Below are positions 4,734-35,372 of a DNA stretch of 35,374 bases, piece after piece. Source of the stretch: Candidatus Scalinduaceae bacterium (GTDB lineage: Bacteria; Planctomycetota; Brocadiia; Brocadiales; Scalinduaceae); contig JBHICG010000031.1 of assembly GCA_046759445.1 (NCBI GenBank), positions 1 through 35,374 of the forward strand, given 5' to 3'. The stretch's first letter is position 1; the number at the start of each line of letters is the position of its first letter. A program made the translations under genes and the position numbers. The notes under the pieces were generated by a model. The model worked only from the letters and a program-made list of their open reading frames with translations. It did not search any database and had not been told where the DNA came from.

Positions 4734-4800
4734 TTGACAAAGGGAAAAATTGGTGTATTGTCTCATGAAATTGGTGAATATTGGGTAAAAATGGGGGATA
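4734..4800 (+). promoter_or_regulatory. dcw (mra) promoter with MraZ-box-like repeats
   Basis: TTGACA 4734-4739, a 16-bp spacer, then TATTGT 4756-4761. TGG cores at 4772, 4782 and 4792 (exact 10-bp period) lie just before the mraZ ATG. Confidence 0.65.
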
Positions 4801-4805
4801 AAACC

Positions 4806-5315
4806 ATGTTCACGGGAAAATACCAGCACATAATCGATGATAATAACAGGCTCGCCATCCCTTCTCCTCTACGTAAGTGTATAGATGAAAAAATAGAGGG
4901 GAAAGGCTTTTATATAACACCCGGTTTGGACAAGTGTCTTGCCGTATATCCACCTCGTCAATTTAACGAGTTAACAAGAAAACTTGGACAGCTTATGTTC
5001 ACTAATCAAAAGGCGCGAAATTTTCAGCGCCTTTTTTTTTCGAAGTCAAGTGGTCTTGTAACCTGTGACAAACAAGGAAGAATTATCATACCTCAAATAC
5101 TTAAAGAGCATGCGGGTTTAGAGAAGGAAGTCGCTATTATTGGTGTAATGAATAAAATTGAGATGTGGGACCTTAAATGTTGGAATGAATTTGAAACGGA
5201 TCATGAACGAAGTTTTGAAGAAGAAGCAGAAGATCTTTTCAAATTGGGTTTTGCTCTAAATCCGGGACAAAATCCACCGATTCCGTATAATCCTAATAAT
5301 CCTACAGATGTGTAA
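4806..5315 (+). CDS. mraZ: Transcriptional regulator MraZ (start re-assigned from TTG 4710 to ATG 4806)
   Basis: MFTGKYQHIIDDNNRLAIP and DKQGRIIIP (two DxxxR AbrB-like repeats), plus KIEMW. It is the first gene of the dcw cluster. Confidence 0.95.
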   Translation: MFTGKYQHIIDDNNRLAIPSPLRKCIDEKIEGKGFYITPGLDKCLAVYPPRQFNELTRKLGQLMFTNQKARNFQRLFFSKSSGLVTCDKQGRIIIPQILKEHAGLEKEVAIIGVMNKIEMWDLKCWNEFETDHERSFEEEAEDLFKLGFALNPGQNPPIPYNPNNPTDV

Positions 5316-6711: not shown

Positions 6712-7242
6712 ATGATTAATCGTTTTGCATCTGATTCTAAACTTTATGTGACAAAAAAATCGAGTTATGAGTTGCTGGATTTAAATGATCTAATAAGATC
6801 ATCGATAAAATTTATTGAACACATGGAGAGCCTTGAGCGTATATCTTTGCAGAAAAAGTTAACACCAAAATTACCTGAGGTGCGAGCCAATGCTGGTGAT
6901 ATTTCCCTTGTAATTGTAAATCTTTTGACTAACTCATTAGACAGTATGCCTGATGGTGGAAAATTATTAATTAAATCACAGTTCTGTAAAGAACATGAAT
7001 CCTGTGTGCAGTTATCTATATCAGATACAGGATGCGGAATTAAAGAAGACGAAATGGATAAAATCTATAGTCCCTTTTTTACAACAAAAGACAAGTTGAA
7101 AGGTATGGGCCTGGGGCTTGCTATAAGCAAAAGGATTATAGAAGACCATGACGGAAAAATTAAGGTAGTGAGTTCATTAGGGGAAGGAGCAACCTTTATT
7201 GTATGTTTTCCTGCTGCAGATAAAGGATTACCAAATAATTAA
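6712..7242 (+). CDS. Stand-alone histidine-kinase ATPase (HATPase_c) domain protein with no H-box
   Basis: N box NLLTNSLDSM, G1 DTGCGI, F PFFTTK and G2 GMGLGL are present. There is no HExxxPL motif, and an in-frame TAG at 6664 blocks upstream extension. Confidence 0.85.
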   Translation: MINRFASDSKLYVTKKSSYELLDLNDLIRSSIKFIEHMESLERISLQKKLTPKLPEVRANAGDISLVIVNLLTNSLDSMPDGGKLLIKSQFCKEHESCVQLSISDTGCGIKEDEMDKIYSPFFTTKDKLKGMGLGLAISKRIIEDHDGKIKVVSSLGEGATFIVCFPAADKGLPNN

Positions 7243-9206: not shown

Positions 9207-9440
9207 ATGACTTATAGGGAACTAGAAAAACAGAATTTTCTTACCTGGTGTAGATACGCTACACCCGAAGAAATTAAAAAAGCAAAAGGCACAAACAAAA
9301 AAGAATTGGAAAGATTATTGAAAGAATATGCAGATGAAATCAAGAAGGTAAGCAAATCTGAGGACTTATATGAATCTATATCACAACATGATGAAGAGGT
9401 GCAAAAAATAGATCTTTCCTTGGAAATTTCAAAGTCATAA
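9207..9440 (+). CDS. Hypothetical 77-aa charged helical protein inside the dcw cluster
   Basis: Strong SD (AAGGAG), co-directional with its neighbours, and ending 13 nt before murE. The N-terminal half (FLTWCRYATPEEI) looks like a folded core; no family was recognised. Confidence 0.75.
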   Translation: MTYRELEKQNFLTWCRYATPEEIKKAKGTNKKELERLLKEYADEIKKVSKSEDLYESISQHDEEVQKIDLSLEISKS

Positions 9441-14780: not shown

Positions 14781-15967
14781 AGATTATCTTTGCTGGTGGC
14801 GGTACTGGCGGACATTTAGTGGCCGGAATTAGTATAGCAGATGAAATATTATTACGATTCCCGGATACGGATATTGTCTTTTTAGGAACAGATAAAAAGA
14901 GGGAAGCTAGATACATAGAAAAAAGTGGTTATAAGTTCGAACAAATAAAAGCACGCAAACTAACATCAATAATTTGCTTACCCGCTTTTGTCTTAGTCTC
15001 CATAATCGGGATTATACATTCTTTAATTAGCATTATTAGAATTAAGCCTGATATAATCATCGGACTGGGTGGATATGGTTCCGTTTTACCTGTAATTGCC
15101 TCATATATTATTGGCATTCCGATTGTCTTGATAGAACAAAATGTTATTCCTGGTAGAGCTAATTTATTAATGGCAAAATGGGCGGATACAATATTCTGTC
15201 ATTGGGAAGGTACAACAAAGTGGTTTAAAAAGGTACATTCTATTCATGTTACGGGTATTCCAATACGTAGGAACATCATAAAAAAGAAGACAGACATTCC
15301 TAAAAATGTTCTTGGTTTTAATCCTCAGAAAAAGACGTTATTGGTAATGGGCGGCAGTCAGGGTGCACAGGCAATAAATCTGGTGTTGTTACAAAGTGTT
15401 CCGAAACTTAAAACCTTAATTCCGGACTTGCAAATTATTCATCTTACTGGAAAACATGGATATAAAGATGTTAAAGATACTTATGATAAGGTGGGAATAA
15501 AAGCCTTTGTATCTGAGTTTTTTGACGACATTAGCATTGCCTATGCACTGTCAGATTTGGTTATTTGTCGTGCAGGAGCGAATACTATTGCAGAAATTTC
15601 TGCTGTAGGTATTCCCACGATTTTAATACCTTATCCGTATGCAACTGATAACCATCAATACTGGAATGCTTATGAACTTGCAAAGAGGGGAGGAGCCGTA
15701 ATCATAAAGCAGGAAGAACTAAATCCTGAAAGGATTATAGAATTAGTATCAAGTTTGCTTATAAATGATGAAAAACTGAATAATATGAAAAAGATCAACA
15801 AAAACTTAAATAAACCGTTTGCAGCTACGAGTCTTATAGATATAATATGTCAGATATCTGAGGCAAAGAATACCAAAAAAGATATAATCCCTGCCCAAAG
15901 TACAGGCGAGGATGAAACAAGAAATTATACAAGAAAAAATGAACCTTACCTTTCAAAAACATTATAA
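14777..15967 (+). CDS. murG: Lipid I GlcNAc transferase MurG
   Basis: Motifs AGGGTGGH, GGYGS, EQN..PG.AN, GGSQGA, CRAGA and HQYWNA. Confidence 0.97.
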   Translation: MKIIFAGGGTGGHLVAGISIADEILLRFPDTDIVFLGTDKKREARYIEKSGYKFEQIKARKLTSIICLPAFVLVSIIGIIHSLISIIRIKPDIIIGLGGYGSVLPVIASYIIGIPIVLIEQNVIPGRANLLMAKWADTIFCHWEGTTKWFKKVHSIHVTGIPIRRNIIKKKTDIPKNVLGFNPQKKTLLVMGGSQGAQAINLVLLQSVPKLKTLIPDLQIIHLTGKHGYKDVKDTYDKVGIKAFVSEFFDDISIAYALSDLVICRAGANTIAEISAVGIPTILIPYPYATDNHQYWNAYELAKRGGAVIIKQEELNPERIIELVSSLLINDEKLNNMKKINKNLNKPFAATSLIDIICQISEAKNTKKDIIPAQSTGEDETRNYTRKNEPYLSKTL

Positions 15968-17528
15968 AGGGATCAGTCAACGACAGTATCTCAACCATGC
16001 TAATTATAGCGATATCAGAGGGAAACACGTTTACTTCATTGGCATTGGGGGTGTAGGAATGAGTGCAATTGCCAAGATATTAATAGATGAGGGTTGTTTT
16101 GTTTCTGGTTCCGATTCAGAATGTTCTCCAGTTACACGTAATCTTGAAAAACTGGGTGCCAAGATTAATGCGAGACAGGATGGGAGAGACATTAATCATC
16201 GTACAAGCTTAGTAATAACATCAGCTGCCATTCGTGAGAATAACCCTGATCTAATAAAGGCAAAGAAGTTAGGGCTGAAAATTATTAAATATTCTGAGTT
16301 TTTGGGTTCTTTAATGAAAAATAGGTGCGGCATTACGGTTAGTGGTACACATGGTAAAACTACAACAAGTGCAATGATTTCAACAATACTAAAAAATGAA
16401 GGATATGAACCTGCCTTTGTAATTGGTGGTAATGTTGAAGGAATCGGAGGTAGTTCTTGTCTTGGGAGAGGAAACTTTTTTATTGCTGAAGCATGTGAAT
16501 ATGATAGAACCTTTTTGAGACTATCACCACAGGTAGGCGTAATCACTAATATTGAGGAGGACCATCTTGATTATTATAAAGATATCGATGGAATTACAGG
16601 TGCCTTTTCAGAGTTTGTATCTTTAATACCTGAAGATGGATTACTTGTTGTAAATAATGATGATATAAATATAAAAAAGGTCATTAAAAGTGCAGAATGC
16701 AGGATTGAAAACTATTCAGTTATTATGGCAACTAATAAAGACCTGCCTGACTATGTTATTCAGGCAGGAAGGACGTTCATACCTGAGTCCTCTTCGATTA
16801 ATAAAGTATCGGAACCTCTAGCTGATGAATTACATAAAGAAATATATTTAGAATCTGATTCGAAATGGATTGCCGTTATGTATTATTTTGATAAAGGAGT
16901 GAGTTATTTTCGCGTATTTAATGAAGGTAAACATTTTGGTGATTTTTACTTGAATATGCCTGGGTTACATAATGTATCAAATGCACTTGCTGCAATTACA
17001 GTTTGCAGTTATATCGGTTTAGATAAAAAAGATATTAGAAAAGCGTTAAAGACATTTAAGGGTGTACACCGTCGTTTTCAAACCATTAATAACAAATATG
17101 GTATTACAATTATTGATGATTATGCCCACCATCCCACGGAAATCAGATTGACATTGGAAACTGCAAAGTCAATTTATCCTTCACAACGACTTTATTGTGT
17201 GTTTCAGCCACATCAGCACAACCGTACAAGGCTTCTTCTAAAGGAATTTGCGAAGGCACTTACGCTTGCTGACAAAATAATCATTACTGATATTTATGCG
17301 GCAAGAGATTCGGGTATGGAAAGAGCTTCCGTTAGTTCTTCAGACCTTGTGCAAGAATTGCAAGAAATTGGTGGAGATGTTAAATACGTAAAAAGCCTGA
17401 GTAAGATTATAAACAGCTTGTCCTCAGATGTAAAAAAAGATGATATTATTTTAACCATGGGTGCAGGTAATATCTGGAAAGTAGCTCATGGTCTAAAAAG
17501 CAACCTCGAAAGCAAATATGATCAGTAA
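15912..17528 (+). CDS. murC: UDP-MurNAc-L-alanine ligase MurC (start uncertain; contains an internal insertion)
   Basis: Motifs IGIGGVGMSA, SGSD, GTHGKTTT, EACEYD, DHLDYY, DDYAHHPTEI, FQPH and MGAG. Confidence 0.96.
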   Translation: MKQEIIQEKMNLTFQKHYKGISQRQYLNHANYSDIRGKHVYFIGIGGVGMSAIAKILIDEGCFVSGSDSECSPVTRNLEKLGAKINARQDGRDINHRTSLVITSAAIRENNPDLIKAKKLGLKIIKYSEFLGSLMKNRCGITVSGTHGKTTTSAMISTILKNEGYEPAFVIGGNVEGIGGSSCLGRGNFFIAEACEYDRTFLRLSPQVGVITNIEEDHLDYYKDIDGITGAFSEFVSLIPEDGLLVVNNDDINIKKVIKSAECRIENYSVIMATNKDLPDYVIQAGRTFIPESSSINKVSEPLADELHKEIYLESDSKWIAVMYYFDKGVSYFRVFNEGKHFGDFYLNMPGLHNVSNALAAITVCSYIGLDKKDIRKALKTFKGVHRRFQTINNKYGITIIDDYAHHPTEIRLTLETAKSIYPSQRLYCVFQPHQHNRTRLLLKEFAKALTLADKIIITDIYAARDSGMERASVSSSDLVQELQEIGGDVKYVKSLSKIINSLSSDVKKDDIILTMGAGNIWKVAHGLKSNLESKYDQ

Positions 17529-18399
17529 TATAGAAATTGTTGATGACATATTTCAGTATGATGTGTCTCTGCAAAGATATACCTCCTTCAAGACAGGGGG
17601 TGTGGCTGAGATATTTACAGAACCAAGGGATATATCCGAATTAAAGAGAGTCCTCCAATATTGTAAGAATGAGCAGAAAAAGATATTCATTTTGGGAAAT
17701 GGAAGTAACGTATTGGTCAATGACAATGGTATCCAGGGTGTGGTAATCTATTTAGGTGGAACCAATTTTAAAAACGTAAAAAGAAATGACAACTATGTGT
17801 TATCGGAGGCAGGAACAAATCTCTCACAGCTTATCCGGAAAACGTCTCTGTGGGGATTAGAAGGTTTAGAACTATTGGTAGGAATTCCGGGTACTGTAGG
17901 TGGTGCTGTAATGATGAATGCAGGAGGGAAATACGGAAGTATAAGCGAAACTATAAGTTCCGTAACCACTATGACTTTTGATGGTGAAATCAGGAACCAT
18001 AATCGTGAGGATGTTGATTTTACGTATCGTGGATGTAATCTTACTGAGCAAATAGTTATTGAAGTAAAATTTGTGCTTAAAGAATCAATAAAAGAGAAAA
18101 TCCTTGCAAGGATGAACAATATTTATAAAGAAAAAAAAGAAAAACAACCCTTATCAACATTTAATGCCGGTTGCGTATTTAAGAATACACATAGGTTTAA
18201 GGCTGCAGAACTCATAGATAAGGCTGGTCTTAAAGGAAAGAATGTAGGGGGTGCCATTGTCTCAGAAAAACATGCAAATTTTATAGTCAATGTCGGAAAC
18301 GCTACAAGCAATGATATTCTTGAACTCATAAAAATAGTCAAAGAGACTATCAAGGGAAAATATAATATCTCGTTAGAACTGGAAATAAAAATCTGGTAA
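17518..18399 (+). CDS. murB: UDP-N-acetylenolpyruvoylglucosamine reductase
   Basis: Motifs TSFKTGG, GNGSN, GIPGTVGGAVMMNAG, AGCVFKN, SEKHANF and LELE. Confidence 0.97.
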   Translation: MISNIEIVDDIFQYDVSLQRYTSFKTGGVAEIFTEPRDISELKRVLQYCKNEQKKIFILGNGSNVLVNDNGIQGVVIYLGGTNFKNVKRNDNYVLSEAGTNLSQLIRKTSLWGLEGLELLVGIPGTVGGAVMMNAGGKYGSISETISSVTTMTFDGEIRNHNREDVDFTYRGCNLTEQIVIEVKFVLKESIKEKILARMNNIYKEKKEKQPLSTFNAGCVFKNTHRFKAAELIDKAGLKGKNVGGAIVSEKHANFIVNVGNATSNDILELIKIVKETIKGKYNISLELEIKIW

Positions 18400-18436: not shown

Positions 18437-19414
18437 ATGTTTCAATCTGAAAAAGTATTAGGAATTATAGTAACCGATAGGGATGGAGTTGTAAAGTCAG
18501 TAAGTTATAGTAATGGCAATTTTAATTCCGACATAATTGGAGATAAGTGGTACAATGCCTTTCGGATTCCTGGTAAAGATTTTTTTAAAGTAGAAGGTGA
18601 ATATCCTAAGATATACAAATTACCAGAAATCGGACAAAAAATCTTAGTACATCCTTCCCATGGTGAAACAGGAGACACATGCGGATACCACATCCTGGTT
18701 GAGCAAATAGATGATGAAGAAAAGTCTACACAGTATCTGAATAGAATGTTATGCTTTGGAAAAATAGTTCCTGGGATTGCCCATGAGATTTGTAACCCCT
18801 TGACCTATGTATCTGGATGGTTACAAATGTTCCTTTCGGAAACACATGATAATGACCCCAAAAAAAAGACCTACGAGACACTTGTCCAAGAGTTTGACCG
18901 TATAGCCAAGTTGGTTAGTTGCTTACTTGAATTTGCAAAACAAACTCCCACATCAAAAAAAATATTTGATGTAAATCAAGTAATAGAAGATGTTATTTTA
19001 ATGGTTGGCTATACTATGAAAAATGAAAATATTGAGGTTACTAAGAATCTGTTGTATTCAGAACTTAAGATAGAGGGAGATTGCAATAGATTGAAACAGG
19101 TTTTCCTTAATTTGCTACAAAATGCGAGGGAAGCCATGCCAAATGGTGGTAAGATTTATTTAAGTACTAATCTTATCCACGATAATTCAATTATGATTCA
19201 ATTTCGTGATACGGGATGTGGTATCACAAGGGATCAAAGAAGCAAAGCCTTTCGCCCTTTTTATACTACCAAAATCAATAACAATGGCACTGGTTTAGGG
19301 TTGTCAGTATGTAAAGCAATGATTGAAGAAATTGGTGGAACAATTGATTTAGATAGTAAAATAGGAGAGGGAACAGTTATTACTATTATCCTGCCAGGTT
19401 ATTCTTCTGATTAA
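18437..19414 (+). CDS. Cytoplasmic sensor histidine kinase (PAS-like N-terminus, HisKA, HATPase_c)
   Basis: GIIVTDRDG (PAS-like start), H box IAHEICNPL, N box QVFLNLLQNAREAM, DTGCGI, PFYTTK and GTGLGL. No TM segment is present. Confidence 0.92.
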   Translation: MFQSEKVLGIIVTDRDGVVKSVSYSNGNFNSDIIGDKWYNAFRIPGKDFFKVEGEYPKIYKLPEIGQKILVHPSHGETGDTCGYHILVEQIDDEEKSTQYLNRMLCFGKIVPGIAHEICNPLTYVSGWLQMFLSETHDNDPKKKTYETLVQEFDRIAKLVSCLLEFAKQTPTSKKIFDVNQVIEDVILMVGYTMKNENIEVTKNLLYSELKIEGDCNRLKQVFLNLLQNAREAMPNGGKIYLSTNLIHDNSIMIQFRDTGCGITRDQRSKAFRPFYTTKINNNGTGLGLSVCKAMIEEIGGTIDLDSKIGEGTVITIILPGYSSD

Positions 19415-19433
19415 TTAATATAAGAGTTTTGAA

Positions 19434-20513
19434 ATGTCAGCCAATCCTAAAATTCTTGTTGTATTCAGAGAAGATGAAAATATGAAAGCTGCTGTGAAAC
19501 TTTTGGCAGAGAAGGGTTACGATGTTTTTTCTAAAACAAGCGTGTTCCAGGCAGTAGCTACAGTTGCTGAAAGAAAAACGGATATTGTTGTTCTTGATAT
19601 AGACGATTTGGAATTAAAGGAGATGGAATTCTTTGATGTTGTAAAAAAAATTAATCCGAAGCTATTTATTTTGGTTTCCTTCTCTTTTGTAAATAGGGAG
19701 AAAGCCATCAAATCTCTCGAAAGTGGTGCTGATTGCTATATTTTAAAACCCTTTTATATAAATGAGTTACTTGCTATTATTCACAAATTTTTAGATAGGA
19801 CCAGTCATAACGGAAGCATCTTGAAGGAATCAAATGGAAAACAATTGTCTGTAAAACGTATGGCATTGAGGATTGCGCATGAAATTAATAATCCTTTAAC
19901 GACAATCAGTGGTCAGTTACAATTGCTCTTGTTAGGACGGATAAACAAAGACCCCAACTACCCCGTATATGTAACTTTAGAGGAGGAAACACAGAGAATT
20001 GCTGAAGCTGTAAGAAATCTAGTGACCTATGCTCAACTTAGAGAACCTAATAAGTCATTTGTGAATTTGAACGATATCATAAAAGAAGTAATCAATTTCT
20101 TTAAGGATACAAAGCAAGAAAGAGATACTCAAATAATAGAAGCCTTTGATAGAGATTTACCAATGATTATGGCCGACAAAGAACAAATCTCCTTGGTTTG
20201 TAAAAATATAATTTGTAATTCTCAAAAGGCTGTTGGTAAAAAAGGCGTCTTAAAAATTTCCACGGAAAAAGATAACCAAAATATAATTGCTACATTTTAT
20301 GATTCAGGTAAAGGAATTCCTTCTAAGGTAATTGAAAGGATTTTTGATCCTTTCTTAGTAGTTGATGAAGCTGAAGGAGGAATAGGTCTGGGACTCTGTG
20401 TTTCTCATAACATAATTAAGAGGCATGGAGGGGATTTAACCGTAAAAAGCCAGGAGCACAAAGGTACCGTCTTTAGTTTCACATTGCCGTTAGAACCAAT
20501 TAAAATCTTGTAA
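19434..20513 (+). CDS. Hybrid protein: atypical receiver domain plus histidine kinase
   Basis: REC fold (KILVVFRE lacking the DD pair, VVLD, GADCYILKPF), H box IAHEINNPL, DSGKGI and GIGLGL. The N box (KNIICNSQKA) and F box (PFLVVD) are divergent. Confidence 0.88.
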   Translation: MSANPKILVVFREDENMKAAVKLLAEKGYDVFSKTSVFQAVATVAERKTDIVVLDIDDLELKEMEFFDVVKKINPKLFILVSFSFVNREKAIKSLESGADCYILKPFYINELLAIIHKFLDRTSHNGSILKESNGKQLSVKRMALRIAHEINNPLTTISGQLQLLLLGRINKDPNYPVYVTLEEETQRIAEAVRNLVTYAQLREPNKSFVNLNDIIKEVINFFKDTKQERDTQIIEAFDRDLPMIMADKEQISLVCKNIICNSQKAVGKKGVLKISTEKDNQNIIATFYDSGKGIPSKVIERIFDPFLVVDEAEGGIGLGLCVSHNIIKRHGGDLTVKSQEHKGTVFSFTLPLEPIKIL

Positions 20514-20531
20514 TCTATTAGAGGAATAAAC

Positions 20532-22127
20532 ATGGATGAAGGGATAAGAATCTTAGTTGTAGATGATGAACCTAAGATATGCCAATTAATTGAAGAATTG
20601 CTTAGACGTGAAGGTTATCAGACAGACACAAGTTTATCAGGTGTTGAGGCATTACAGATGATGAAGAAGCATAATTATCAAATGTTGTTAACCGACTTAA
20701 AGATGCCTGGAATTGATGGCCTTGAACTGATTCGAAAGGCTAAGAAGGAATATCCGGAAATCAGGACTATAATGGTCACTGGTTATGCAACTGTAGAGAC
20801 TGCCGTTCAGTCGCTAAGACATGGAGTGGATGATTATATAACCAAGCCCTTTAATATTTTTGAATTAAAAAAGGCCGTAAATAGAACCTTATATGGCCAT
20901 CAGATTGCAATGGAAAATAAACAACTTCTAGATGATTTAAAAAAAACAAATATTGAACTTGACTTTTATAAACAAAAATTAACTCTAGAGGTCCAGACAA
21001 CTGGTAAGCATCTTACAGATGCCAATAAAGAGCTTGTTCAAAGAATAAACGAATTAGACACAATAAACGAGATTAGTAAAGCAATTACGTCGGTTTTAGA
21101 TACGAATGAACTCTTAAACTTATGTCTGGGAAAAATTAACGAAAAGCTAAAGGTAAAGCAAAGTTCAATCATGTTGCTTGATGAAGAAAAAAAAGAGTTG
21201 ATAGTTAAGGCATACCAAGGTGACAGATGCAACCTGGTTATAGGTAAAACTCGAAAGATAGGCGAAGGAATTGCAGGGCGTGTTGCGAAAGAAAGAAAGC
21301 CCATTTTGGTCAAGAATATTATTGATGATAACAGGCTTAGAGGAAGTGAAAAACCTGATTATGTAACAAAGTCATTTGTTTCTGCACCTTTAATTTCGGG
21401 TAAAAGGCTTCTTGGAGTAATAAACATCACAGACAAAATTTCAAGAGAGAGTTTTAGTGAGACAGATGTTAATCTCCTTTGTATTATGGCAGGGCAGGTA
21501 AGTATTGCATTAGAAAACATGAGACTTTACAAGACAATAGAAGAAAATTGTTTTAATACGGTTAGGTCTTTGGCTAATCTTCTAGAGGCAAGAGATAGTT
21601 TTACAAATGGTCATTCTCAAAGAGTATCAGAATACGCACTCTCCATCGCAGATATGATAGGAGTGTCACCCAAAGAAAAAGACATATTGCATCATGCAGC
21701 ACAATTGCATGACATAGGCAAAATAGGTATATCAGAACGTATACTTAATAAGCCTGATAAATTGAGTAAATCTGAATTTGATGTAATAAAGTCCCATCCT
21801 ATTATAGGTGAAAAAATAATAGAGCCTTTAGATTTTCTCAAAGAAGCAAGTCACTATATAAGAGGTCACCACGAGAGTTTTGATGGTAGTGGGTATCCTG
21901 ATAAATTGGGTGGAAAAGATATACCACTTTTGACTAAGATAATGACAGTAGCCGATGCTTTCGATGCAATGACATCAGAAAGGACATACCGGCCATCTAA
22001 AAAGATAAACGAAGCGATTTCAGAACTCAATAGAGTATCTGGGAAACAATTAGATCCTGTATTAGTAGATGCATTTGCTTCTCATGAAATGACCAAGATA
22101 AGTTCTGAATTAGAATCTTATTCATAA
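20532..22127 (+). CDS. REC-GAF-HD-GYP cyclic-dinucleotide phosphodiesterase
   Basis: Canonical REC (ILVVDDE, LTDLKMPG, MVTG, TKPF), a coiled coil and a GAF domain. HD-GYP motifs are EARDSFTNGHSQRV, LHDIGK, HHESFDGSGYP and ADAFDAMTSERTY. Confidence 0.93.
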   Translation: MDEGIRILVVDDEPKICQLIEELLRREGYQTDTSLSGVEALQMMKKHNYQMLLTDLKMPGIDGLELIRKAKKEYPEIRTIMVTGYATVETAVQSLRHGVDDYITKPFNIFELKKAVNRTLYGHQIAMENKQLLDDLKKTNIELDFYKQKLTLEVQTTGKHLTDANKELVQRINELDTINEISKAITSVLDTNELLNLCLGKINEKLKVKQSSIMLLDEEKKELIVKAYQGDRCNLVIGKTRKIGEGIAGRVAKERKPILVKNIIDDNRLRGSEKPDYVTKSFVSAPLISGKRLLGVINITDKISRESFSETDVNLLCIMAGQVSIALENMRLYKTIEENCFNTVRSLANLLEARDSFTNGHSQRVSEYALSIADMIGVSPKEKDILHHAAQLHDIGKIGISERILNKPDKLSKSEFDVIKSHPIIGEKIIEPLDFLKEASHYIRGHHESFDGSGYPDKLGGKDIPLLTKIMTVADAFDAMTSERTYRPSKKINEAISELNRVSGKQLDPVLVDAFASHEMTKISSELESYS

Positions 22128-22134
22128 AATAGAT

Positions 22135-23727
22135 ATGCAGTTTATTATTATATCTGAAAATGATGACCTGCGTTTACTGAAATATAGCCTGAGCAGGGTG
22201 CCAGGTTGTAATGTACGTATGCTTGATAGTGTCTTCGTCACTCTACTCGAATTGAAAGAAAATCCCGCAGACTTGATCATACTTGATACAAAAGGAATGG
22301 AATCAAGTTCGAATGAAATACTGGATGTTATACATCAGCGCACTCCGGGATCTCAGATAATTGTGATTTCAGACTATTCGAATAGTAAGATATATAAACC
22401 TAATAGCAATAATACTATGTTAGGTGATAGTGGCATAATAAACTCGTTTTCGAGACCTTTTGTATTTGACGAGTTGTTAGGAACGATTACTAGATATATC
22501 AGAAATAAATCAATAAGCTATGAATCCAAACAGAAAGTCAAATTAAAAAACGATAACATAGAGTTAAAGACCAACCCTACCTTAACACTTGCAAAAGAAA
22601 CCGGTTTTTGTTCAAATGGCATGACCTGGCAAAAAAACGGGAACGATAATTATATTGAGAAATTACTAAAGACCATGAATAATATGGAGGAATTGTCTGA
22701 CATAATAGTTCAAGCTTGTGCGGCTAGAGTAAAGTCAGAAAAATGTTCCCTTATGTTATTGGACAGAAAAAGTCAAACACTTACAGTAACGAAAGCAACT
22801 GGTATTAACGTAAACAAAATAAAAAATACGAAAGTCAAATTAGGCGAAAGTGTTGCTGGATTGGTAGCGCTCAAGGGTGAGACGTTTTTAGTAACTGATA
22901 CAAAAAATAAGAGGGAAGACTTTGACATAAGTAATTCTTATAGATACAAATCCAGCTCATTTATTTCTATACCTCTAAAAGTTAAATCAGATACAATAGG
23001 TGTACTTAATTTAACAGATAAAATCAATAATCAACACTTTACAGAAAACGATTTAAATTCATTATCAACATTTGCTTCTTATGCAGCAATTGCCATTAGA
23101 AATAATTTGCTCTTTAACGAACTTCAGGATTTATCTGTTATAGATGAACTTACAGGATTATACAATAAAAGGCATTTTTTAAGTTGCCTGGAAAATGAGA
23201 TAGAAAGGTCATGTCGTTACAATTGCCATTTTGCCTTGGCTATATTCGGTATTGACGATTTCAAATATTATAATGACACTTATGGCAGATCGATTGGAAA
23301 CTTCGTCTTAAATCAAATTTCAGATATCATTAAAATATACACAAGGAATAGTGATATTGTTGCGCGTTATGGTGAGGGAGAATTTGCCGCGCTCTTTCCC
23401 GAAACGCGTGGTACTGAGAATTCATTAACCAGTACCATCTCAGGTCTCCAATTTCCTGATAGGTTAAGGACTGCAGTTGAGAGTCACGGATTCTCACGTA
23501 TTGATCCTCTTAAAAGGGTTTGTATAACAATCAGTGGTGGTGTGGCCATATTTCCGCTTGATGGTAAAACAAAGAAAGAACTTATTTCTAGAGCTGAAGA
23601 AAATTTGTGTTACGCAAAAAAGAAAGGAAAAAACACAATATATATTGGTCGAGTATATCCACATGACTATCATATAAAAATCCTTCGGGGGAAACCATAC
23701 TACACCCCATTATGCAAGAAGGTGTAA
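22135..23727 (+). CDS. Pseudo-receiver-GAF-degenerate GGDEF protein (probable c-di-GMP receptor)
   Basis: DELTGLYN is present, FGIDDFK has the first catalytic Asp replaced by Gly, the RNSD I-site is intact, and RYGEGEF replaces RYGG(D/E)EF. TISGGVA and AKKKGKN follow. Confidence 0.88.
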   Translation: MQFIIISENDDLRLLKYSLSRVPGCNVRMLDSVFVTLLELKENPADLIILDTKGMESSSNEILDVIHQRTPGSQIIVISDYSNSKIYKPNSNNTMLGDSGIINSFSRPFVFDELLGTITRYIRNKSISYESKQKVKLKNDNIELKTNPTLTLAKETGFCSNGMTWQKNGNDNYIEKLLKTMNNMEELSDIIVQACAARVKSEKCSLMLLDRKSQTLTVTKATGINVNKIKNTKVKLGESVAGLVALKGETFLVTDTKNKREDFDISNSYRYKSSSFISIPLKVKSDTIGVLNLTDKINNQHFTENDLNSLSTFASYAAIAIRNNLLFNELQDLSVIDELTGLYNKRHFLSCLENEIERSCRYNCHFALAIFGIDDFKYYNDTYGRSIGNFVLNQISDIIKIYTRNSDIVARYGEGEFAALFPETRGTENSLTSTISGLQFPDRLRTAVESHGFSRIDPLKRVCITISGGVAIFPLDGKTKKELISRAEENLCYAKKKGKNTIYIGRVYPHDYHIKILRGKPYYTPLCKKV

Positions 23728-23867: not shown

Positions 23868-23953
23868 AATGCACAGAGAATATAGAAAAAAATAAAAATA
23901 ATAAAAACCTATAAAACCAATAATTAGGTCTATACTATAATTCTCTGTGCATT
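23868..23953. repeat. 14-bp perfect inverted repeat bracketing an A-rich spacer just upstream of ddl
   Basis: AATGCACAGAGAAT (23868-23881) pairs with ATTCTCTGTGCATT (23940-23953). It extends by 4 bp (ATAG/CTAT) with a 1-nt bulge. Confidence 0.9.
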
Positions 23954-23963
23954 CAAAAAAAAT

Positions 23964-24986
23964 ATGCTTGATAAAAAAAACATTGCAGTATTAATGGGTG
24001 GCATATCATCTGAAAGAGAAATATCATTTCAGTCCGGTAAGGCTGTTGCAAATGCCTTGAGAAAGACCAATAACAACGTTATCGAAATAGTCGTCAATGA
24101 TAGCGTTGTTGATGAACTTGATAATCATGAAATTGATGTGGCATTCATAGCCCTTCATGGGTATTTTGGCGAGGATGGTGGTATTCAGGAGATTCTGGAA
24201 TCAAAGGGCATTCCGTACACTGGCTCTGGTGTTTATGCAAGCAAACTTGCAATGAACAAACTAAAATCTAAGAGTATTTTTAAAAAGAACAATATACTAA
24301 CCCCGGATTATCAATCAGTCTCTACTAAACAGACTGTTCGCGTAATCATTAAAAGAGCTGAAAAACTTGGTTTACCTGTTGTTACCAAACCCATAGACAA
24401 TGGTTCCAGTGCAGGAATATCTTTGATTAAAGAGTATGATGAATTAAAAGATGGAATAAATTATGCAGGACTATTTGGGAATGAAATTCTTATTGAAAAA
24501 TATATTGAAGGCAGGGAATTGGCTGTTGGCATTCTTAATGATAAACTTTTACCCATAATTGAGATAAAACCTGCTTCAAAGTTCTATGATTATGTTGCAA
24601 AGTACAAGGATAAAAGAACCCAATATATAGTCTTGAAATCTGATAATAAATCATTGTTTCATTCAACATATACTGATGCTCAGGAACTGGCGGTTCAAGC
24701 ACACAATAGCCTTGAATGTCGTGGTTTCTCAAGAGTAGATATGATATTAGGCAAAGACGGTAAAATATACGTCCTTGAAGTTAATACTATCCCGGGGTTC
24801 ACGGAAAGAAGTCTATTGCCAAAGGCAGCTAATGCCGTAAACATTGGTTTTGTAGAATTATGTAGTATCATCGTTGATACTGCACTCAAACATAAACACA
24901 CCCAGTCGTCTGAACAATCCGTTCAGGTAGGTGACAAGGCAGCAAAGAAGACAACGGAGAAATCCAACCAGTCCTGTTATATATAG
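23964..24986 (+). CDS. ddl: D-alanine--D-alanine ligase
   Basis: Motifs MGGISSEREIS, LHGYFGEDG, PYTGSG, GSS, EKYIEGRE, FYDY..KY and EVNTIPG. Confidence 0.97.
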   Translation: MLDKKNIAVLMGGISSEREISFQSGKAVANALRKTNNNVIEIVVNDSVVDELDNHEIDVAFIALHGYFGEDGGIQEILESKGIPYTGSGVYASKLAMNKLKSKSIFKKNNILTPDYQSVSTKQTVRVIIKRAEKLGLPVVTKPIDNGSSAGISLIKEYDELKDGINYAGLFGNEILIEKYIEGRELAVGILNDKLLPIIEIKPASKFYDYVAKYKDKRTQYIVLKSDNKSLFHSTYTDAQELAVQAHNSLECRGFSRVDMILGKDGKIYVLEVNTIPGFTERSLLPKAANAVNIGFVELCSIIVDTALKHKHTQSSEQSVQVGDKAAKKTTEKSNQSCYI

Positions 24987-25011: not shown

Positions 25012-25974
25012 ATGAAACAAATCCTTAAATATCTTTACGATAAGGCCGCAGACAAGACAAGAACTGGTATCGTTACCCTAAACCCATATCTTGAGAAGAC
25101 ACAGAAAAAAACCATATCCATTTTACTAAGGTCGTCCATCGTAATCATCGCAATCCTTGTTGTTATGTGGTTGGGTAAATTCACATGGAAACATTTAACA
25201 AATCGAGCAATGTTTATGGTAAGTCCTGTAACATTCTCGTTTGAGACTCCAACATGGGCGACTGATAAATTCATCCATAAGGTAAAGAACCTCCCCGGTC
25301 TGAAGAAAAAATACAATATGTTTGAAAAGGATTTAACAAAAAAAATTGCTGCGATATATGAAAATAGTCCTCTTATTTCTAAGGTTTGCTATATAGAAAG
25401 AGAACTTCCTAACTGCATAAACCTAAAATTTGAATTGCACAGGCCGATAGCCATCATCAAGAATAAGGGTAAAGAGATCCTGGTAGATAAGGATTGTGTT
25501 AGACTTCCAGGAGAATTCTATAAATATCCTGAAGAAGGTGAAAATCCAATCTATATAATCAGTAGCAGGTCTTTAAGGGTTCCTAAATGCGGTGAAAGAT
25601 GTAATAACAGGTCAATCAGGGAAGGCGTAAATCTTTTAAATTATCTAAAGTTTAACAAAATAGATAAACTTCTAAAAATTGCGTCTATAGATGTTTCTAA
25701 TGTGGGTAGGAGACTTAAAAGTGGTAAAAGTGATATTATGTTACGGACACAAAATGGAGCTATGATAAAATGGGGATGTCCAAAATCATGCGAACAGCCG
25801 TATGAACTCTCTGATTATGGAAAACTTCAGAACCTGTTGAGTGTCATAAAGGAGGAAGGAACAGAACTTGCTAATATGGAATATGTTGACGTTAGATGGA
25901 AGATCCCGTTCGGTAAACACATGAATGTTCCTATGAAAGACAAGTCCCAGTATCATACACAGATTGTAAAATAA
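25012..25974 (+). CDS. ftsQ: FtsQ/DivIB-like cell division protein
   Basis: A single TM (SSIVIIAILVVMWL), a POTRA-like end ERELPNCINLKFELHRPIAII, and C-terminal YVDVR (cf. YIDLR). It follows ddl. Confidence 0.8.
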   Translation: MKQILKYLYDKAADKTRTGIVTLNPYLEKTQKKTISILLRSSIVIIAILVVMWLGKFTWKHLTNRAMFMVSPVTFSFETPTWATDKFIHKVKNLPGLKKKYNMFEKDLTKKIAAIYENSPLISKVCYIERELPNCINLKFELHRPIAIIKNKGKEILVDKDCVRLPGEFYKYPEEGENPIYIISSRSLRVPKCGERCNNRSIREGVNLLNYLKFNKIDKLLKIASIDVSNVGRRLKSGKSDIMLRTQNGAMIKWGCPKSCEQPYELSDYGKLQNLLSVIKEEGTELANMEYVDVRWKIPFGKHMNVPMKDKSQYHTQIVK

Positions 25975-32332: not shown

Positions 32333-32704
32333 ATGGATAAGAAAAAACTGGCGGTTATTCACATTGTTAAAAAGGAATTATCCTTGAGTGATGACGAGTA
32401 CCGGAATATTCTTGAACGAATCACCGGTGTTCGATCCGCAAAGGATTTGACCGACAATCAGTTTCATAAACTGATGCGTTATTTTGTCAGAACCCGCCAT
32501 TATCGAGTGACAAGCAGAGGAATAACCATGCGGCAGAAATATTATATACGACAGTTGAAAGAGAAACTTCAGTGGGATGACGCCCATTTTCAAAATTATA
32601 TGCACAAATATTTCCATAACCGAGAGCTCATAACCTATACCAGGCACGACGCCAGCAATCTGATTGTTGCATTAACAGAGATCTTGAAAAGCCACGGCAC
32701 GTAA
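32333..32704 (+). CDS. Phage Mu GemA/gp16 (DUF1018) family protein
   Basis: IHIVKKELSLSDDEYRNILERITGVRSAKDLT matches the IHIAK..L.L.DD.YR..L...TG..S...LT signature. The C-terminus reads ASNLIVAL. Confidence 0.82.
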   Translation: MDKKKLAVIHIVKKELSLSDDEYRNILERITGVRSAKDLTDNQFHKLMRYFVRTRHYRVTSRGITMRQKYYIRQLKEKLQWDDAHFQNYMHKYFHNRELITYTRHDASNLIVALTEILKSHGT

Positions 32705-32814
32705 ACCGGAAGACCGATTGCACCAGGTATAATGTCATTAATCTGTACCAATCTCTTTGACATTATATTGTTTTTCCTGATTGCCTAAAATAATCTACGC
32801 CTTCTTCTCTCTTA

Positions 32815-32842
32815 AAGCAAGGATTGATTTATGTTAAAAGAT
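32815..32842 (+). repeat. 28-bp direct repeat, right copy
   Basis: Identical to 32048-32075. It extends to 38 bp with 2 mismatches (32805-32842 vs 32038-32075). Confidence 0.93.
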
Positions 32843-32873
32843 GTGGTCTTATCAATTAGGCATAATATTTTTT

Positions 32874-35372
32874 TTAATGGTCACTGTCCTTTTCATGCTT
32901 AATCAGTCTATTTTCAATTTGTGGATAAAGCTTGTCAATTTCCTTCTGAATTTCTATTGTCTTTTTTAAAGCAGTTACTACTTTGCAGTAATGTCGAATG
33001 TCGTCAAGGGTTAGTCTTTTGCCTTTTCTGTCTTTCAACCATTTATCTAATACTTGATAACCGCCAATTTGATATTCCCACAACTCTTTCTCAATCCCTT
33101 CAAAATACTGGTTTTTGTTAATGTGAACTCTCTTTTCATCCTCATTATACCTTAACTTTTCCACTAGACTTGTCCCATCGCCCTGAAACTTTGATATTGG
33201 ATTGTTTAATGACTTTGATTTTAACAGGTGTAGTTCCGTAAGCTCTTTTCCTAAAACAGACATCTTTTGAAAGAGTTTAAAATCCTTTGTGAATGGAACC
33301 TTCGGGAAATCTATCTTCAGAAATTCAGCATATTTAGTGCGGTAAATGTTTGAATAAAGCACTGCATAAATATAGAAGAATATTTGTTCTGGAATTGGTT
33401 CTTGCTTAAAATTCATTGTAAGTTGTTCGAGAAATACCCTAGAGAGATTTGACCTTTTTGTACCGTAATCTGCCTTTGGTTCAAAAAGCATCATAGTACT
33501 ACTAGAAGACCGTTTTTTAGGGTCAGTTTTTTGGGGATAGAGATATAGTGGGAATACAAAACCTGCACCTCTATTACTTATAAAAAGTCTTCTATCTGAA
33601 ATTTCATTTGCACAAAGAATATAGTTATAAATTTTTACAAAATCATAAAGGTATTGTCGCATTACTATCAAACCGATATTATCTTTAACAAAATGTTGCA
33701 TTACATCATAACGATCTCGGTCTATTAGTTCTGTAAGATAACAAATATATCTATTATCAAAGGGTCGATAAGAATATGGTATTATGGATTTTTGCCAATC
33801 TTTATTTTTTATTTTATTCCTTGCTTGCGCTATCTTGAAGTCATTAGTGTCCTTTAAGGTTAATCCCTGCCTTACTAATTCATCAGGTAAGTTACCAGTA
33901 AAAGTTCTCATCTTTTGTCTGACTTCCTCTTTTGTAAAACCAATTACAAAATGATCACGATGAGTCGTTACACCACTTGAAGATTTATTAAATATTTTTT
34001 GAATAGATATAAATTGATTATAGTTTCCTTGTAGCGAAAAATCTTTTTCCTCAAAGAAATAATGAGGTTCTGACGGCTGTAATTCTATCCATTTCGTAGA
34101 TTGAATATCATTTTTATTTAAATACGTATATTTCTTTTCTCTCAGGCCATAAACATCTTCATAAAAAACCTTTCCCAAGCCTTTATGTTTTTTGTTTTTG
34201 ATAAATAAAACAATAGAGACTCCCTGCTGGATATCAAAAACGTTTTCATCTTTACCTCCGTCAGGACATTTCTCACCAATACGGCTATTGCCATGTAGAT
34301 TTAAAACATAAATCTCATTGAAACTCTCTAATAATTTTTTGCGCATACCACGATGAATTAATCCTGAAATGTAGGAATTATTAGTAATCATACCTATAAT
34401 ACCTTTTCCTTCTTTTTCAATTTTCCAGTGTGCAAAGCGAATAAACTTAATGTAGTCATCGGAAAGAGGTTGTATATTTCTTTCGTCTCGAACATCTTCC
34501 TTGTAAAGTTCCATTTCTTTTTCAATAAAACTAGATTTATTGATAGAACTTACAGAATACGGAGGATTACCCATTATTACCAATACAGGCGTCTTCTTTT
34601 TTACCTTTCCTGCAAGTCGAGATTCCTCAGCTAAGGATGACATGCCGGGAAATTCAGATTGGGCTAGATCTTCCATTTCCAGGGTATTTGTCAGATACAA
34701 CTTGAATCTATCATCCTTTCTTAATTTGTAATCTAATTCCTCCATTAGAAATGACATCTTCAAATGACCTACAGCATAAGGCGCCATCATGAGTTCAAAG
34801 GCGTAGAAATTCTTCAAAATATGTTCTTTGATTAAGTCCTTTTTGCCTGCCTCGCCATATTTAGTGGTAAATTCTGTAGTAGCCAGTTTGCTTGCCTCAG
34901 CAAGAAATGTCAAAGTGCCGGCAGCAGGATCAAGTACAGTTACAGAGCTTGATGCAAAACCTTCGTCTTTACCAAATCTCTGCTTTAAGACGTAATGTAA
35001 TAAACGAACAATATATGAAACTACAGGTTCCGGAGTGTAATAAACACCCCTTCGCTCCCGTTCTTTTGGATCATACTCAGCAAGGAATGTTTCGTAAAAG
35101 TGAATGATTGGATCTTTCCCCTTACCTTCATGAAAATACTTGTGAAGTATATTATTTACATTGGTAACAGCTAAGACTTCTGCAATATCATCAACAATCC
35201 ATTCCATCTGTTTAGGTAGATCTTCAAGTGAAATGAACCTAAATACATCTCTTAAGATTCCTATCGTGCGAGGAATATTATCGAATGCAAGTTTACGATT
35301 AAAACCGTTTTCTGATCTCGTTCTTGCAGCAAAAAGACCATACGTAATAGTCTGTGAATATAAATCTGCAAA
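32874..35372 (-). CDS. Type IIG / Type ISP-like restriction-modification enzyme (N6-adenine MTase + C-terminal specificity domain); 5'-truncated by the window edge
   Basis: The frame stays open beyond 35207 to the window end (FADLYSQTITYGLFAAR...). Motifs are YETFLAEYDP..R..RGVYYTP, motif I LDPAAGT, motif IV GNPPY, YRPFD, IDFPKVP and IGGYQVL.KWLK.RK. Confidence 0.9.
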   Translation of the reverse strand, partial: FADLYSQTITYGLFAARTRSENGFNRKLAFDNIPRTIGILRDVFRFISLEDLPKQMEWIVDDIAEVLAVTNVNNILHKYFHEGKGKDPIIHFYETFLAEYDPKERERRGVYYTPEPVVSYIVRLLHYVLKQRFGKDEGFASSSVTVLDPAAGTLTFLAEASKLATTEFTTKYGEAGKKDLIKEHILKNFYAFELMMAPYAVGHLKMSFLMEELDYKLRKDDRFKLYLTNTLEMEDLAQSEFPGMSSLAEESRLAGKVKKKTPVLVIMGNPPYSVSSINKSSFIEKEMELYKEDVRDERNIQPLSDDYIKFIRFAHWKIEKEGKGIIGMITNNSYISGLIHRGMRKKLLESFNEIYVLNLHGNSRIGEKCPDGGKDENVFDIQQGVSIVLFIKNKKHKGLGKVFYEDVYGLREKKYTYLNKNDIQSTKWIELQPSEPHYFFEEKDFSLQGNYNQFISIQKIFNKSSSGVTTHRDHFVIGFTKEEVRQKMRTFTGNLPDELVRQGLTLKDTNDFKIAQARNKIKNKDWQKSIIPYSYRPFDNRYICYLTELIDRDRYDVMQHFVKDNIGLIVMRQYLYDFVKIYNYILCANEISDRRLFISNRGAGFVFPLYLYPQKTDPKKRSSSSTMMLFEPKADYGTKRSNLSRVFLEQLTMNFKQEPIPEQIFFYIYAVLYSNIYRTKYAEFLKIDFPKVPFTKDFKLFQKMSVLGKELTELHLLKSKSLNNPISKFQGDGTSLVEKLRYNEDEKRVHINKNQYFEGIEKELWEYQIGGYQVLDKWLKDRKGKRLTLDDIRHYCKVVTALKKTIEIQKEIDKLYPQIENRLIKHEKDSDH

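Follow-up and report, generated by a model that had tools for sequence, protein, structure and literature searches.

What is a block of four signalling genes doing inside a cell-wall operon? The question is raised by a 35,374-nt stretch of DNA from a Candidatus Scalinduaceae bacterium (contig JBHICG010000031.1 of assembly GCA_046759445.1; hereafter the window, always at its full length), in which two histidine kinase genes, an HD-GYP gene and a GGDEF gene lie between murB and ddl in the cluster of cell-wall and division genes (dcw). The answer that we favour, at a probability of roughly 0.5, is an accessory, kinase-controlled phosphodiesterase module for cyclic di-GMP (c-di-GMP) that lies in, and is probably expressed with, the dcw operon, so that c-di-GMP turnover would follow wall synthesis. 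Two other answers are weighed against it. The block could be a passenger, that is, a working c-di-GMP module that came to rest at a tolerant point of a dcw cluster under erosion and is kept there only by the rarity of moves out of it, its position meaningless for wall synthesis or growth. Alternatively, as an earlier note on the window had proposed, it could be a dedicated division and cell-cycle circuit tied to FtsZ loss, which times FtsZ-independent division and in which the GGDEF protein, in its degenerate form, acts like PopA as an effector.

All domain types in the block are known, and what may be new is the placement of a signalling block in dcw. The earlier note knew of no such arrangement, and no description of such a block inside an anammox dcw cluster was found in the literature searched, although a figure or supplement of an older paper could show one.

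The window genome (G000, 97% complete) belongs to the marine anammox family Scalinduaceae (f1). The comparison set comprises 92 genomes of the order: 28 in Scalinduaceae, 63 in families f2, f3 and f4 (the last probably Brocadiaceae), and G028, which represents f5. Counts of what follows murB in Scalinduaceae rest on the 27 of 28 in which murB was located; G016 (95% complete) gave no murB or module match, its dcw contig stopping after murG, and was left out of the 27.

Composition of the signalling block

The block and its borders are:

17518..18399, + strand: murB, left border of the variable interval (family matches)
18437..19414, + strand: HK1, with a cytoplasmic PAS domain (about residues 5-92), HisKA (H116) and HATPase_c (Pfam, alignment, fold)
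19434..20513, + strand: RHK2, with an atypical receiver, HisKA (H149) and HATPase_c (Pfam, alignment)
20532..22127, + strand: response regulator of the layout REC-coiled coil-GAF-HD-GYP (Pfam REC+GAF+HD_5, alignment)
22135..23727, + strand: protein with a degenerate receiver, GAF and GGDEF (weak Pfam REC+GAF+GGDEF, alignment)
23964..24986, + strand: ddl, right border of the variable interval (family matches)

The open reading frame (ORF) coordinates confirm the gene order, strand and spacing given in the earlier note: the gaps from murB onward are 37, 19, 18 and 7 nt, followed by 236 nt up to ddl. Its statement that the four proteins lack transmembrane segments also holds, the highest 19-residue hydropathy being 1.09-1.12 in the block proteins versus 2.4-2.9 in the membrane proteins FtsL, FtsI, MraY and FtsW of the same operon.

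HK1 is by its features a class I (HisKA) histidine kinase, with an H-box histidine, N, G1 and G2 boxes, a PAS fold and no transmembrane segment. Its N-terminus has no PAS match in Pfam. In a predicted structure (mean confidence score, pLDDT, 79) the first 92 residues nevertheless fold as a small PAS domain, as the earlier note had suspected; the best structural match, the cytoplasmic PAS domain of S. aureus YycG/WalK (4mn5; Z 10.3, root-mean-square deviation 2.8, 89 residues aligned), is a likeness of fold only. The PAS family is narrow, with 12 matches among 1.84 billion representatives. RHK2 had been described as carrying a pseudoreceiver. The acidic pair is indeed missing, but D55, S82/S84 and K105 are kept in an alignment of 18 sequences, and on this alignment the domain is atypical rather than clearly ‘pseudo’. 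Because its receiver lacks the acidic pair and its f5 orthologue has lost the G2 box, RHK2 may act as a modulator or phosphatase.

The HD-GYP protein has a canonical receiver (D11, D12, D55, T83, K105; PF00072 at 104.7 bits), a GAF domain at residues 190-328 and complete catalytic motifs (H393-D394, H446-H447-E448, G454-Y455-P456), and the receiver and catalytic residues are conserved over 22 sequences. Its best solved relative is PmGH, an active GAF-HD-GYP enzyme (4mcw, E 1.9e-42), of which it keeps 7 of 8 metal ligands; F357 stands at the E185 position, where tyrosine or phenylalanine is predicted to give a binuclear rather than a trinuclear site in the part of the source available to us (PMC4159591). 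The protein is thus probably a two-metal c-di-GMP phosphodiesterase. The closest named record of its gene is from Ca. Scalindua rubra, at 74% identity, and the c-di-GMP network of the window genome further shows in 6 GGDEF and 8 PilZ matches.

The fourth protein has lost its active site (D372G, H385R, D389N, GGEEF to GEGEF) and lacks the GG(D/E)EF motif and the metal- and GTP-binding residues of an active cyclase, while the RxxD inhibitory-site motif is kept (R404-N-S-D407). This degeneracy is private to the window genome: GGEEF is kept in 10 of 10 other homologues, making the degenerate form 1 of 11. In its GGDEF domain 12 of 72 otherwise invariant positions are altered, against 0-5 in the other homologues, and in its GAF domain 4 of 44 (0-7 in the others). 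The pattern fits early decay or a recent, private switch to a binding role. The gene is present in 4 of 25 Scalinduaceae genomes searched and split in 2 of the 4; its holders are scattered over three genera, and therefore it would be ancestral there and repeatedly lost. These findings bear directly on the proposed division circuit. PopA-like features are seen in the dead site and the intact RxxD motif, but the degeneracy is not kept in relatives, and since it is private to the window genome a conserved PopA-like role is unlikely.

Distribution and descent

HK1 directly follows murB in 20 of the 27 Scalinduaceae genomes, several of which are cut by contig ends; in G008 HK1 is split. The HD-GYP gene stands alone between murB and ddl in two others, of genus g3, and five (G004, G006, G011, G015, G090) have no signalling gene there. 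Genome-wide searches of these five found no HK1, RHK2 or HD-GYP orthologue elsewhere. The losses map to at least three separate branches, and one of the five genomes is 96% complete in 2 contigs; such losses within the family weigh against a circuit dedicated to division. The frequency with which the module is deleted or broken is what a passenger would show. Against a passenger stands the location of the survivors, since the HK1, RHK2 and full HD-GYP orthologues that Scalinduaceae yielded all sit in the murB-ddl interval and no genome of the family carries the module outside it.

The interval is variable in other ways. Two HD-GYP genes are found in three genomes, and a stand-alone receiver derived from the HD-GYP protein in six. 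These 130-aa receivers, which correspond to the HD-GYP N-terminus, precede ddl in six g2 genomes and apparently have two separate origins (examples are L054 8455-8847, L060 11035-11427 and L064 2021-2413). Among 17 metagenome contigs that span murB to ddl, 6 carry the full module, 2 the HD-GYP gene alone and 9 no intact HD-GYP gene; these contigs were chosen by a hairpin described below and are biased accordingly, 11 of 60 loci were dropped as repeats, and some of the 17 may be one population.

Outside Scalinduaceae the module is absent from the dcw cluster. In f2 murB adjoins ddl in 8 of 8 loci examined, in f4 the module is absent from 17 of 17 dcw loci and murB has moved out of the cluster, and the one f5 locus examined also lacks it. 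The 63 genomes of f2, f3 and f4, likewise members of this phylum without FtsZ, yielded no module orthologue, a further point against a division circuit. Across the 92 genomes, an HD-GYP orthologue was found in 21, the HK1 PAS domain in 20 and G028, and strong RHK2 receiver matches in 18, RHK2 orthologues being restricted to genera g1, g2 and g4 of Scalinduaceae and to f5. The HD-GYP search scored 16 candidates per genome, and absence outside f1 and f5 rests also on the HK1 and RHK2 searches; the HK1 search missed the divergent HK1 of G028, and more distant orthologues could escape it. In G028 the genes HK1-RHK2-HD-GYP stand in the same order on a contig other than that of dcw, amid unrelated metabolic genes, which favours a passenger and again weakens the case for a division circuit. 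A short ORF between murB and ddl of G028 (L070 6908-7261) consists of a ddl start and a murB end; it was considered as a scar of the module and rejected, being a relic of local duplication.

The linkage that the earlier note expected in related genomes thus holds for murB and HK1 in 20 genomes and fails in those where the module is absent or unlinked. Its other reservation, an assembly chimera, is ruled out by the synteny in the 20 genomes and by contigs of two other runs that cross the murB-HK1 junction. The module is not found in all members of the order, as a part of the core divisome or a replacement for FtsZ would be. It is missing in most anammox genomes and several close relatives, and so the four-gene block is not a general substitute for FtsZ-linked control.

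The absence of ftsZ itself is no peculiarity of this locus. As the earlier note had it, the cluster lacks ftsA and ftsZ: in the 97%-complete genome the FtsZ family gave no match and FtsA none above the cut-off. The murD gene is also outside the cluster, on another contig, and according to the available parts of two reviews ftsZ was lost in all planctomycetes and ftsA in most, with erosion of the dcw cluster (PMC12673574, PMC5147048). Because the loss is common to all planctomycetes, ‘ftsZ-less’ describes the phylum and not the dcw locus, and FtsZ loss as a special trait of the window is ruled out (PMC12673574, as far as its available text goes). Anammox cells are described, in the accessible portion of a further source, as dividing by binary fission with a non-FtsZ ring and building septal peptidoglycan (PMC4432595).

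Between genera, the ratio of nonsynonymous to synonymous substitution rates (dN/dS) is 0.13-0.27 for HK1, RHK2 and the HD-GYP gene versus 0.09-0.26 for mur genes, with similar dS. Within genus g1 the ratios are looser (HK1 0.49, HD-GYP 0.45). By this measure the kinases and the HD-GYP protein are under purifying selection much like that on the mur genes. The HD-GYP tree broadly matches the genera and, judged from sequence comparison, the block has in most Scalinduaceae been conserved within dcw and passed down vertically with it. A placement of f5 as sister to Scalinduaceae came from a tree without f4 and was abandoned, as adding f4 gives (f1,f4) versus (f5,f2) with a support of 1.0. Given this split, a move of the module into dcw in Scalinduaceae and a transfer between f5 and f1 are both possible.

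Transcription of the block

The start of the operon contains two relevant features:

4734..4796, + strand: predicted promoter of the operon (TTGACA-N16-TATTGT), after which come three TGG(T/G)N boxes with 10-nt spacing (4772, 4782, 4792) (promoter scan and relatives)
4806..5315, + strand: mraZ, first gene of the dcw operon, with a likely start at ATG 4806 (family matches)

The promoter-like site and its three boxes stand upstream of mraZ in the window, as they do in 39 of 42 relatives (four anammox families), and the boxes are likely the MraZ operator. We take TGG(T/G)N boxes before mraZ to be MraZ-binding sites; a literature search on the box motif found nothing. A sigma-70 scan was uninformative (77 sites versus 79.8 expected). 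No terminator-like site was found on the + strand between 12893 and 24300, that is from mraY to ddl, which bears out the earlier note's view that the block has no obvious terminator. In G000, G018 and G021 only 37-43 nt separate murB from HK1, and in the window this leaves no room for a promoter. On this layout, co-transcription of the module with dcw is plausible; control by MraZ is unproven.

The hairpin before ddl

Two elements of the cluster had gone unmentioned in the earlier note, a 77-aa ORF between ftsI and murE, treated below, and a strong hairpin within the 236 nt that precede ddl:

23869..23952, + strand: hairpin of about 84 nt, 11 nt before ddl (folding, z -8.4; pattern and covariance searches)

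The structure has a 13-bp and a 4-5-bp stem with an inner stem, and is single-copy in G000. Its exact pattern was found at 25 sites in 17 of the 92 genomes, 25/25 within the murB-ddl interval; a covariance model gave 31 strong sites, again all (31/31) in the interval, and two weak sites elsewhere. Copies share one orientation and stand before HK1, duplicated HD-GYP genes, the stand-alone receiver and ddl, with up to four per genome. The hairpin is absent from the murB-ddl site in g3, f5, f2 and f4. Three module-less genomes read murB-hairpin-ddl or murB-hairpin-hairpin-ddl, from which we infer the remainder of direct-repeat recombination; other module deletions cut inside genes.

The arms are strongly conserved and covariation is weak, with 97% of cells paired and two-sided change in 3 of 22 pairs, as measured on an alignment fitted to the hairpin's own model. 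In Rfam the window matched only a tRNA, and four hairpin loci gave nothing near the gathering score. The arms of the window hairpin hold one full and one imperfect CACAGA-type unit, inverted. Of 60 metagenome loci with the same 11-nt arms, 9 are unrelated DNA, several with tandem CACAGAG-type arrays. GxxExxY (PF13366) genes in these genomes are flanked by related arms (CACAGA upstream and TCTGTG downstream in 4 of 37 loci, related words in others of the 37). The two kinds of repeat may be alike in having inverted arms on CACAGA-type words, but the hairpin, unlike the GxxExxY-linked repeats, is not dispersed, and its own arms were not seen around any GxxExxY gene.

Role of the module

The mechanism that we propose begins with a two-component module that would have reached the murB-ddl junction in the Scalinduaceae ancestor and been inherited with the dcw operon since. 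The HK1 PAS domain would sense an intracellular signal and HK1 would autophosphorylate at H116; directly or via RHK2, it would then phosphorylate D55 of the REC-GAF-HD-GYP protein and so switch on a two-metal c-di-GMP phosphodiesterase. The fourth gene would once have encoded an opposing active diguanylate cyclase, since lost, split or, in the window, inactivated in most lineages. Read-through from dcw promoters would raise the capacity to degrade c-di-GMP along with cell-wall gene expression, and growth would in this way be coupled to a general output of c-di-GMP, be it adhesion, aggregation or the state of the envelope. Such a module would be useful yet dispensable, and the hairpin repeats at its border would promote duplication and deletion of the interval.

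Several observations weigh against this proposal. In 17 of the 20 HK1 genomes (19 measured, with the window added) murB and HK1 lie 140-391 nt apart, where a promoter or a processing site could fit. Assemblies from two RNA libraries of one study bridge murB and HK1, but their cover is even and DNA is a possible source; run X2 is without cover at 22314-23581 and X1 has low cover there, which we did not use as evidence. HK1 starts 13.6 kb downstream of mraZ, and in Neisseria elongata the effect of MraZ was confined to the first 5-7 dcw genes, according to the available part of that report (PMC9395523). Flagellin does not track the module, being present in 3 of the 5 genomes that lack it and in 16 of the 22 that carry it; this lack of co-occurrence removed motility as a candidate output. 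Phosphotransfer, enzyme activity and transcription are all predicted from sequence. Lastly, the selection seen on the module genes says nothing of selection on their position.

A passenger is a somewhat less likely explanation, yet nearly as good an account as the growth-linked module. To the unlinked genes of G028 and the many broken copies may be added that the anammox dcw cluster takes many unrelated insertions, among them a gene of 340-390 aa, a biotin-carrier gene and a cassette of dipeptidase, hydrolase, Mur ligase-like and Ddl-like genes, and that murC, murD and murB have been relocated in various lineages. A chance junction is less easily reconciled with the constant position of the module in Scalinduaceae, with an unrelated REC-GAF kinase whose place, in 9 of 9 f4 genomes that hold it, is right before mraY, or with the count of two-component genes among the insertions (3 of about 8, counted post hoc).

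A dedicated division circuit is improbable. Besides its loss in close relatives, its absence from three families and its unlinking in f5, the rare and split GGDEF gene and the decay seen in the window copy argue against it, as does the window itself, where an Hpt domain gave no match in the 29 ORFs (the search covered the window, not the rest of the genome) and no CpdR-like partner was seen. Such a circuit must be both lineage-specific and dispensable. It is also doubtful that anammox bacteria, which grow very slowly, have repeatedly recruited cytoplasmic signalling into dcw (the Scalinduaceae module, the f4 kinase, an ATPase-only ORF in g1) so that phosphorylation and c-di-GMP tune septal wall synthesis, with the Scalinduaceae module as a lineage-specific controller of division or separation, the hairpin as a transcript processor and the 77-aa gene as a division component.

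The wider interest lies in FtsZ-free anammox division, which is an open question with the dcw operon among its few footholds. The family-wide module, the second kinase insertion and the small unannotated gene are candidates for studies of expression, localisation and enzyme activity, and populations in nature that have the module can readily be compared with those that lack it.

Other insertions and neighbouring genes

Three further ORFs of the window cluster deserve mention:

6712..7242, + strand: HATPase_c-only ORF between ftsL and ftsI (Pfam; no HisKA domain or H-box)
9207..9440, + strand: unannotated 77-aa ORF with ftsI and murE as neighbours (conserved in this position in Scalinduaceae and f4)
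25012..25974, + strand: probable ftsQ (label inferred from position and one N-terminal hydrophobic segment)

The first had been read as a fifth kinase. With HATPase_c alone and no phospho-histidine domain, it is ruled out as a full (class I) kinase, and it occurs only in the three g1 genomes (G001, G002 and the window genome), being absent from the other 16 Scalinduaceae, 6 f2 and 1 f5 loci that span ftsL to ftsI. The probable ftsQ gave no FtsQ family match.

The 77-aa ORF is more constant than the signalling module. In 19 of 19 other Scalinduaceae loci that cover the stretch from ftsI to murE it stands between the two; it does so too in G016 and, among the f4 dcw loci, in 17 of 17 (one of them placed by its coordinate). 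Homologues are found in 26 of 27 other Scalinduaceae and 44 of 47 f4 genomes, or 71 of the 92 with the window, and none were found in f2, f3 and f5. It has no significant Pfam match and no usable protein-atlas match. The window genome has two paralogues, one between flagellin and fliD and one after a clpC-like gene. We regard it as a candidate anammox-specific dcw gene.

The f4 kinase before mraY is of the layout REC-GAF-HisKA-HATPase(-REC), is bordered by murF on the far side in the 6 loci that extend far enough, and on this comparison is a second, independent signalling insertion in dcw (L268 8186-9907; L283 8315-10348; L287-L295). At least eight different dcw insertions were seen in the order; the earlier note took dcw content to be very conservative, and in this order it is not. 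The cassette before ftsQ contains D-Ala-D-Ala dipeptidase-like, alpha/beta hydrolase, Mur ligase-like and divergent Ddl-like genes (L056 3049-7969; L044, L046, L068); it seems to replace the usual ddl in G005, G013 and G017, leaving remnants, and may alter the peptide stem. The gene of 340-390 aa, with a weak transglutaminase-like match, lies between murE and murF in g2 and g4 (L104 7109-8266 and equivalents). The murC gene is gone from the murG-murB position in five g2 genomes (L064, L060, L062, L063, L057) and, in f4, is outside the cluster together with murB in G079.

Elsewhere in the window, MurC (15912-17528) is long at 538 aa, its middle domain carrying some 50-60 inserted residues, and lengths are similar in Scalinduaceae relatives. 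A tRNA lies at 2433-2508, and 32333-35372 holds a Mu GemA-like ORF together with a type ISP restriction-modification gene that the contig end truncates.

Comparison with known systems

The Caulobacter circuit of CckA-ChpT-CpdR, PopA and PdeA combines kinases, c-di-GMP turnover and a dead GGDEF protein with an RxxD site, and the window module resembles it in all three. It differs in having no Hpt domain in the window, no membrane anchor and no CpdR partner, in the private nature of its dead GGDEF domain, and in being dispensable. RHK2 has the same layout as the Leptospira LvrB-type REC-HisKA-HATPase kinases (NCBIfam NF047466, matched below the cut-off; PDB 8vc9), a layout that would permit a kinase-to-kinase cascade, but its receiver, unlike theirs, is without the acidic pair.

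At the level of the cluster, the window is like other eroded Planctomycetota dcw clusters in lacking ftsZ and ftsA and in having lost or moved genes; in their available parts, the reviews treat such losses and not the insertion of signalling genes (PMC12673574, PMC5147048).

The closest parallels concern the HD-GYP protein. Its GAF-long helix-HD-GYP core (residues 181-518) aligns with PmGH of Persephonella marina (PDB 4mcw; PMC4159591, available in part), with the equivalents of D183, K225 and D308 kept; it differs in its extra N-terminal receiver and in the phenylalanine at the E185 position. REC-PAS/GAF-HD-GYP regulators (RpfX) are a described class (10.1101/2021.11.05.467447, of which part was available), and the window protein has their receiver, central GAF/PAS domain and full HD-GYP motif. 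It thus shares its architecture with the RpfX/RpfY-type regulators DVU2933 and DVU0722 of D. vulgaris and VCA0210 of V. cholerae and, by analogy, is predicted to share phosphorylation-controlled c-di-GMP hydrolysis. According to the same partly available source, dvu2933 lies in an operon that regulates the envelope gene lpxC. Unlike any such gene found in the literature searched, the window HD-GYP gene is part of the dcw operon, accompanied by genes for two cytoplasmic kinases and, in the ancestral state, a cyclase.

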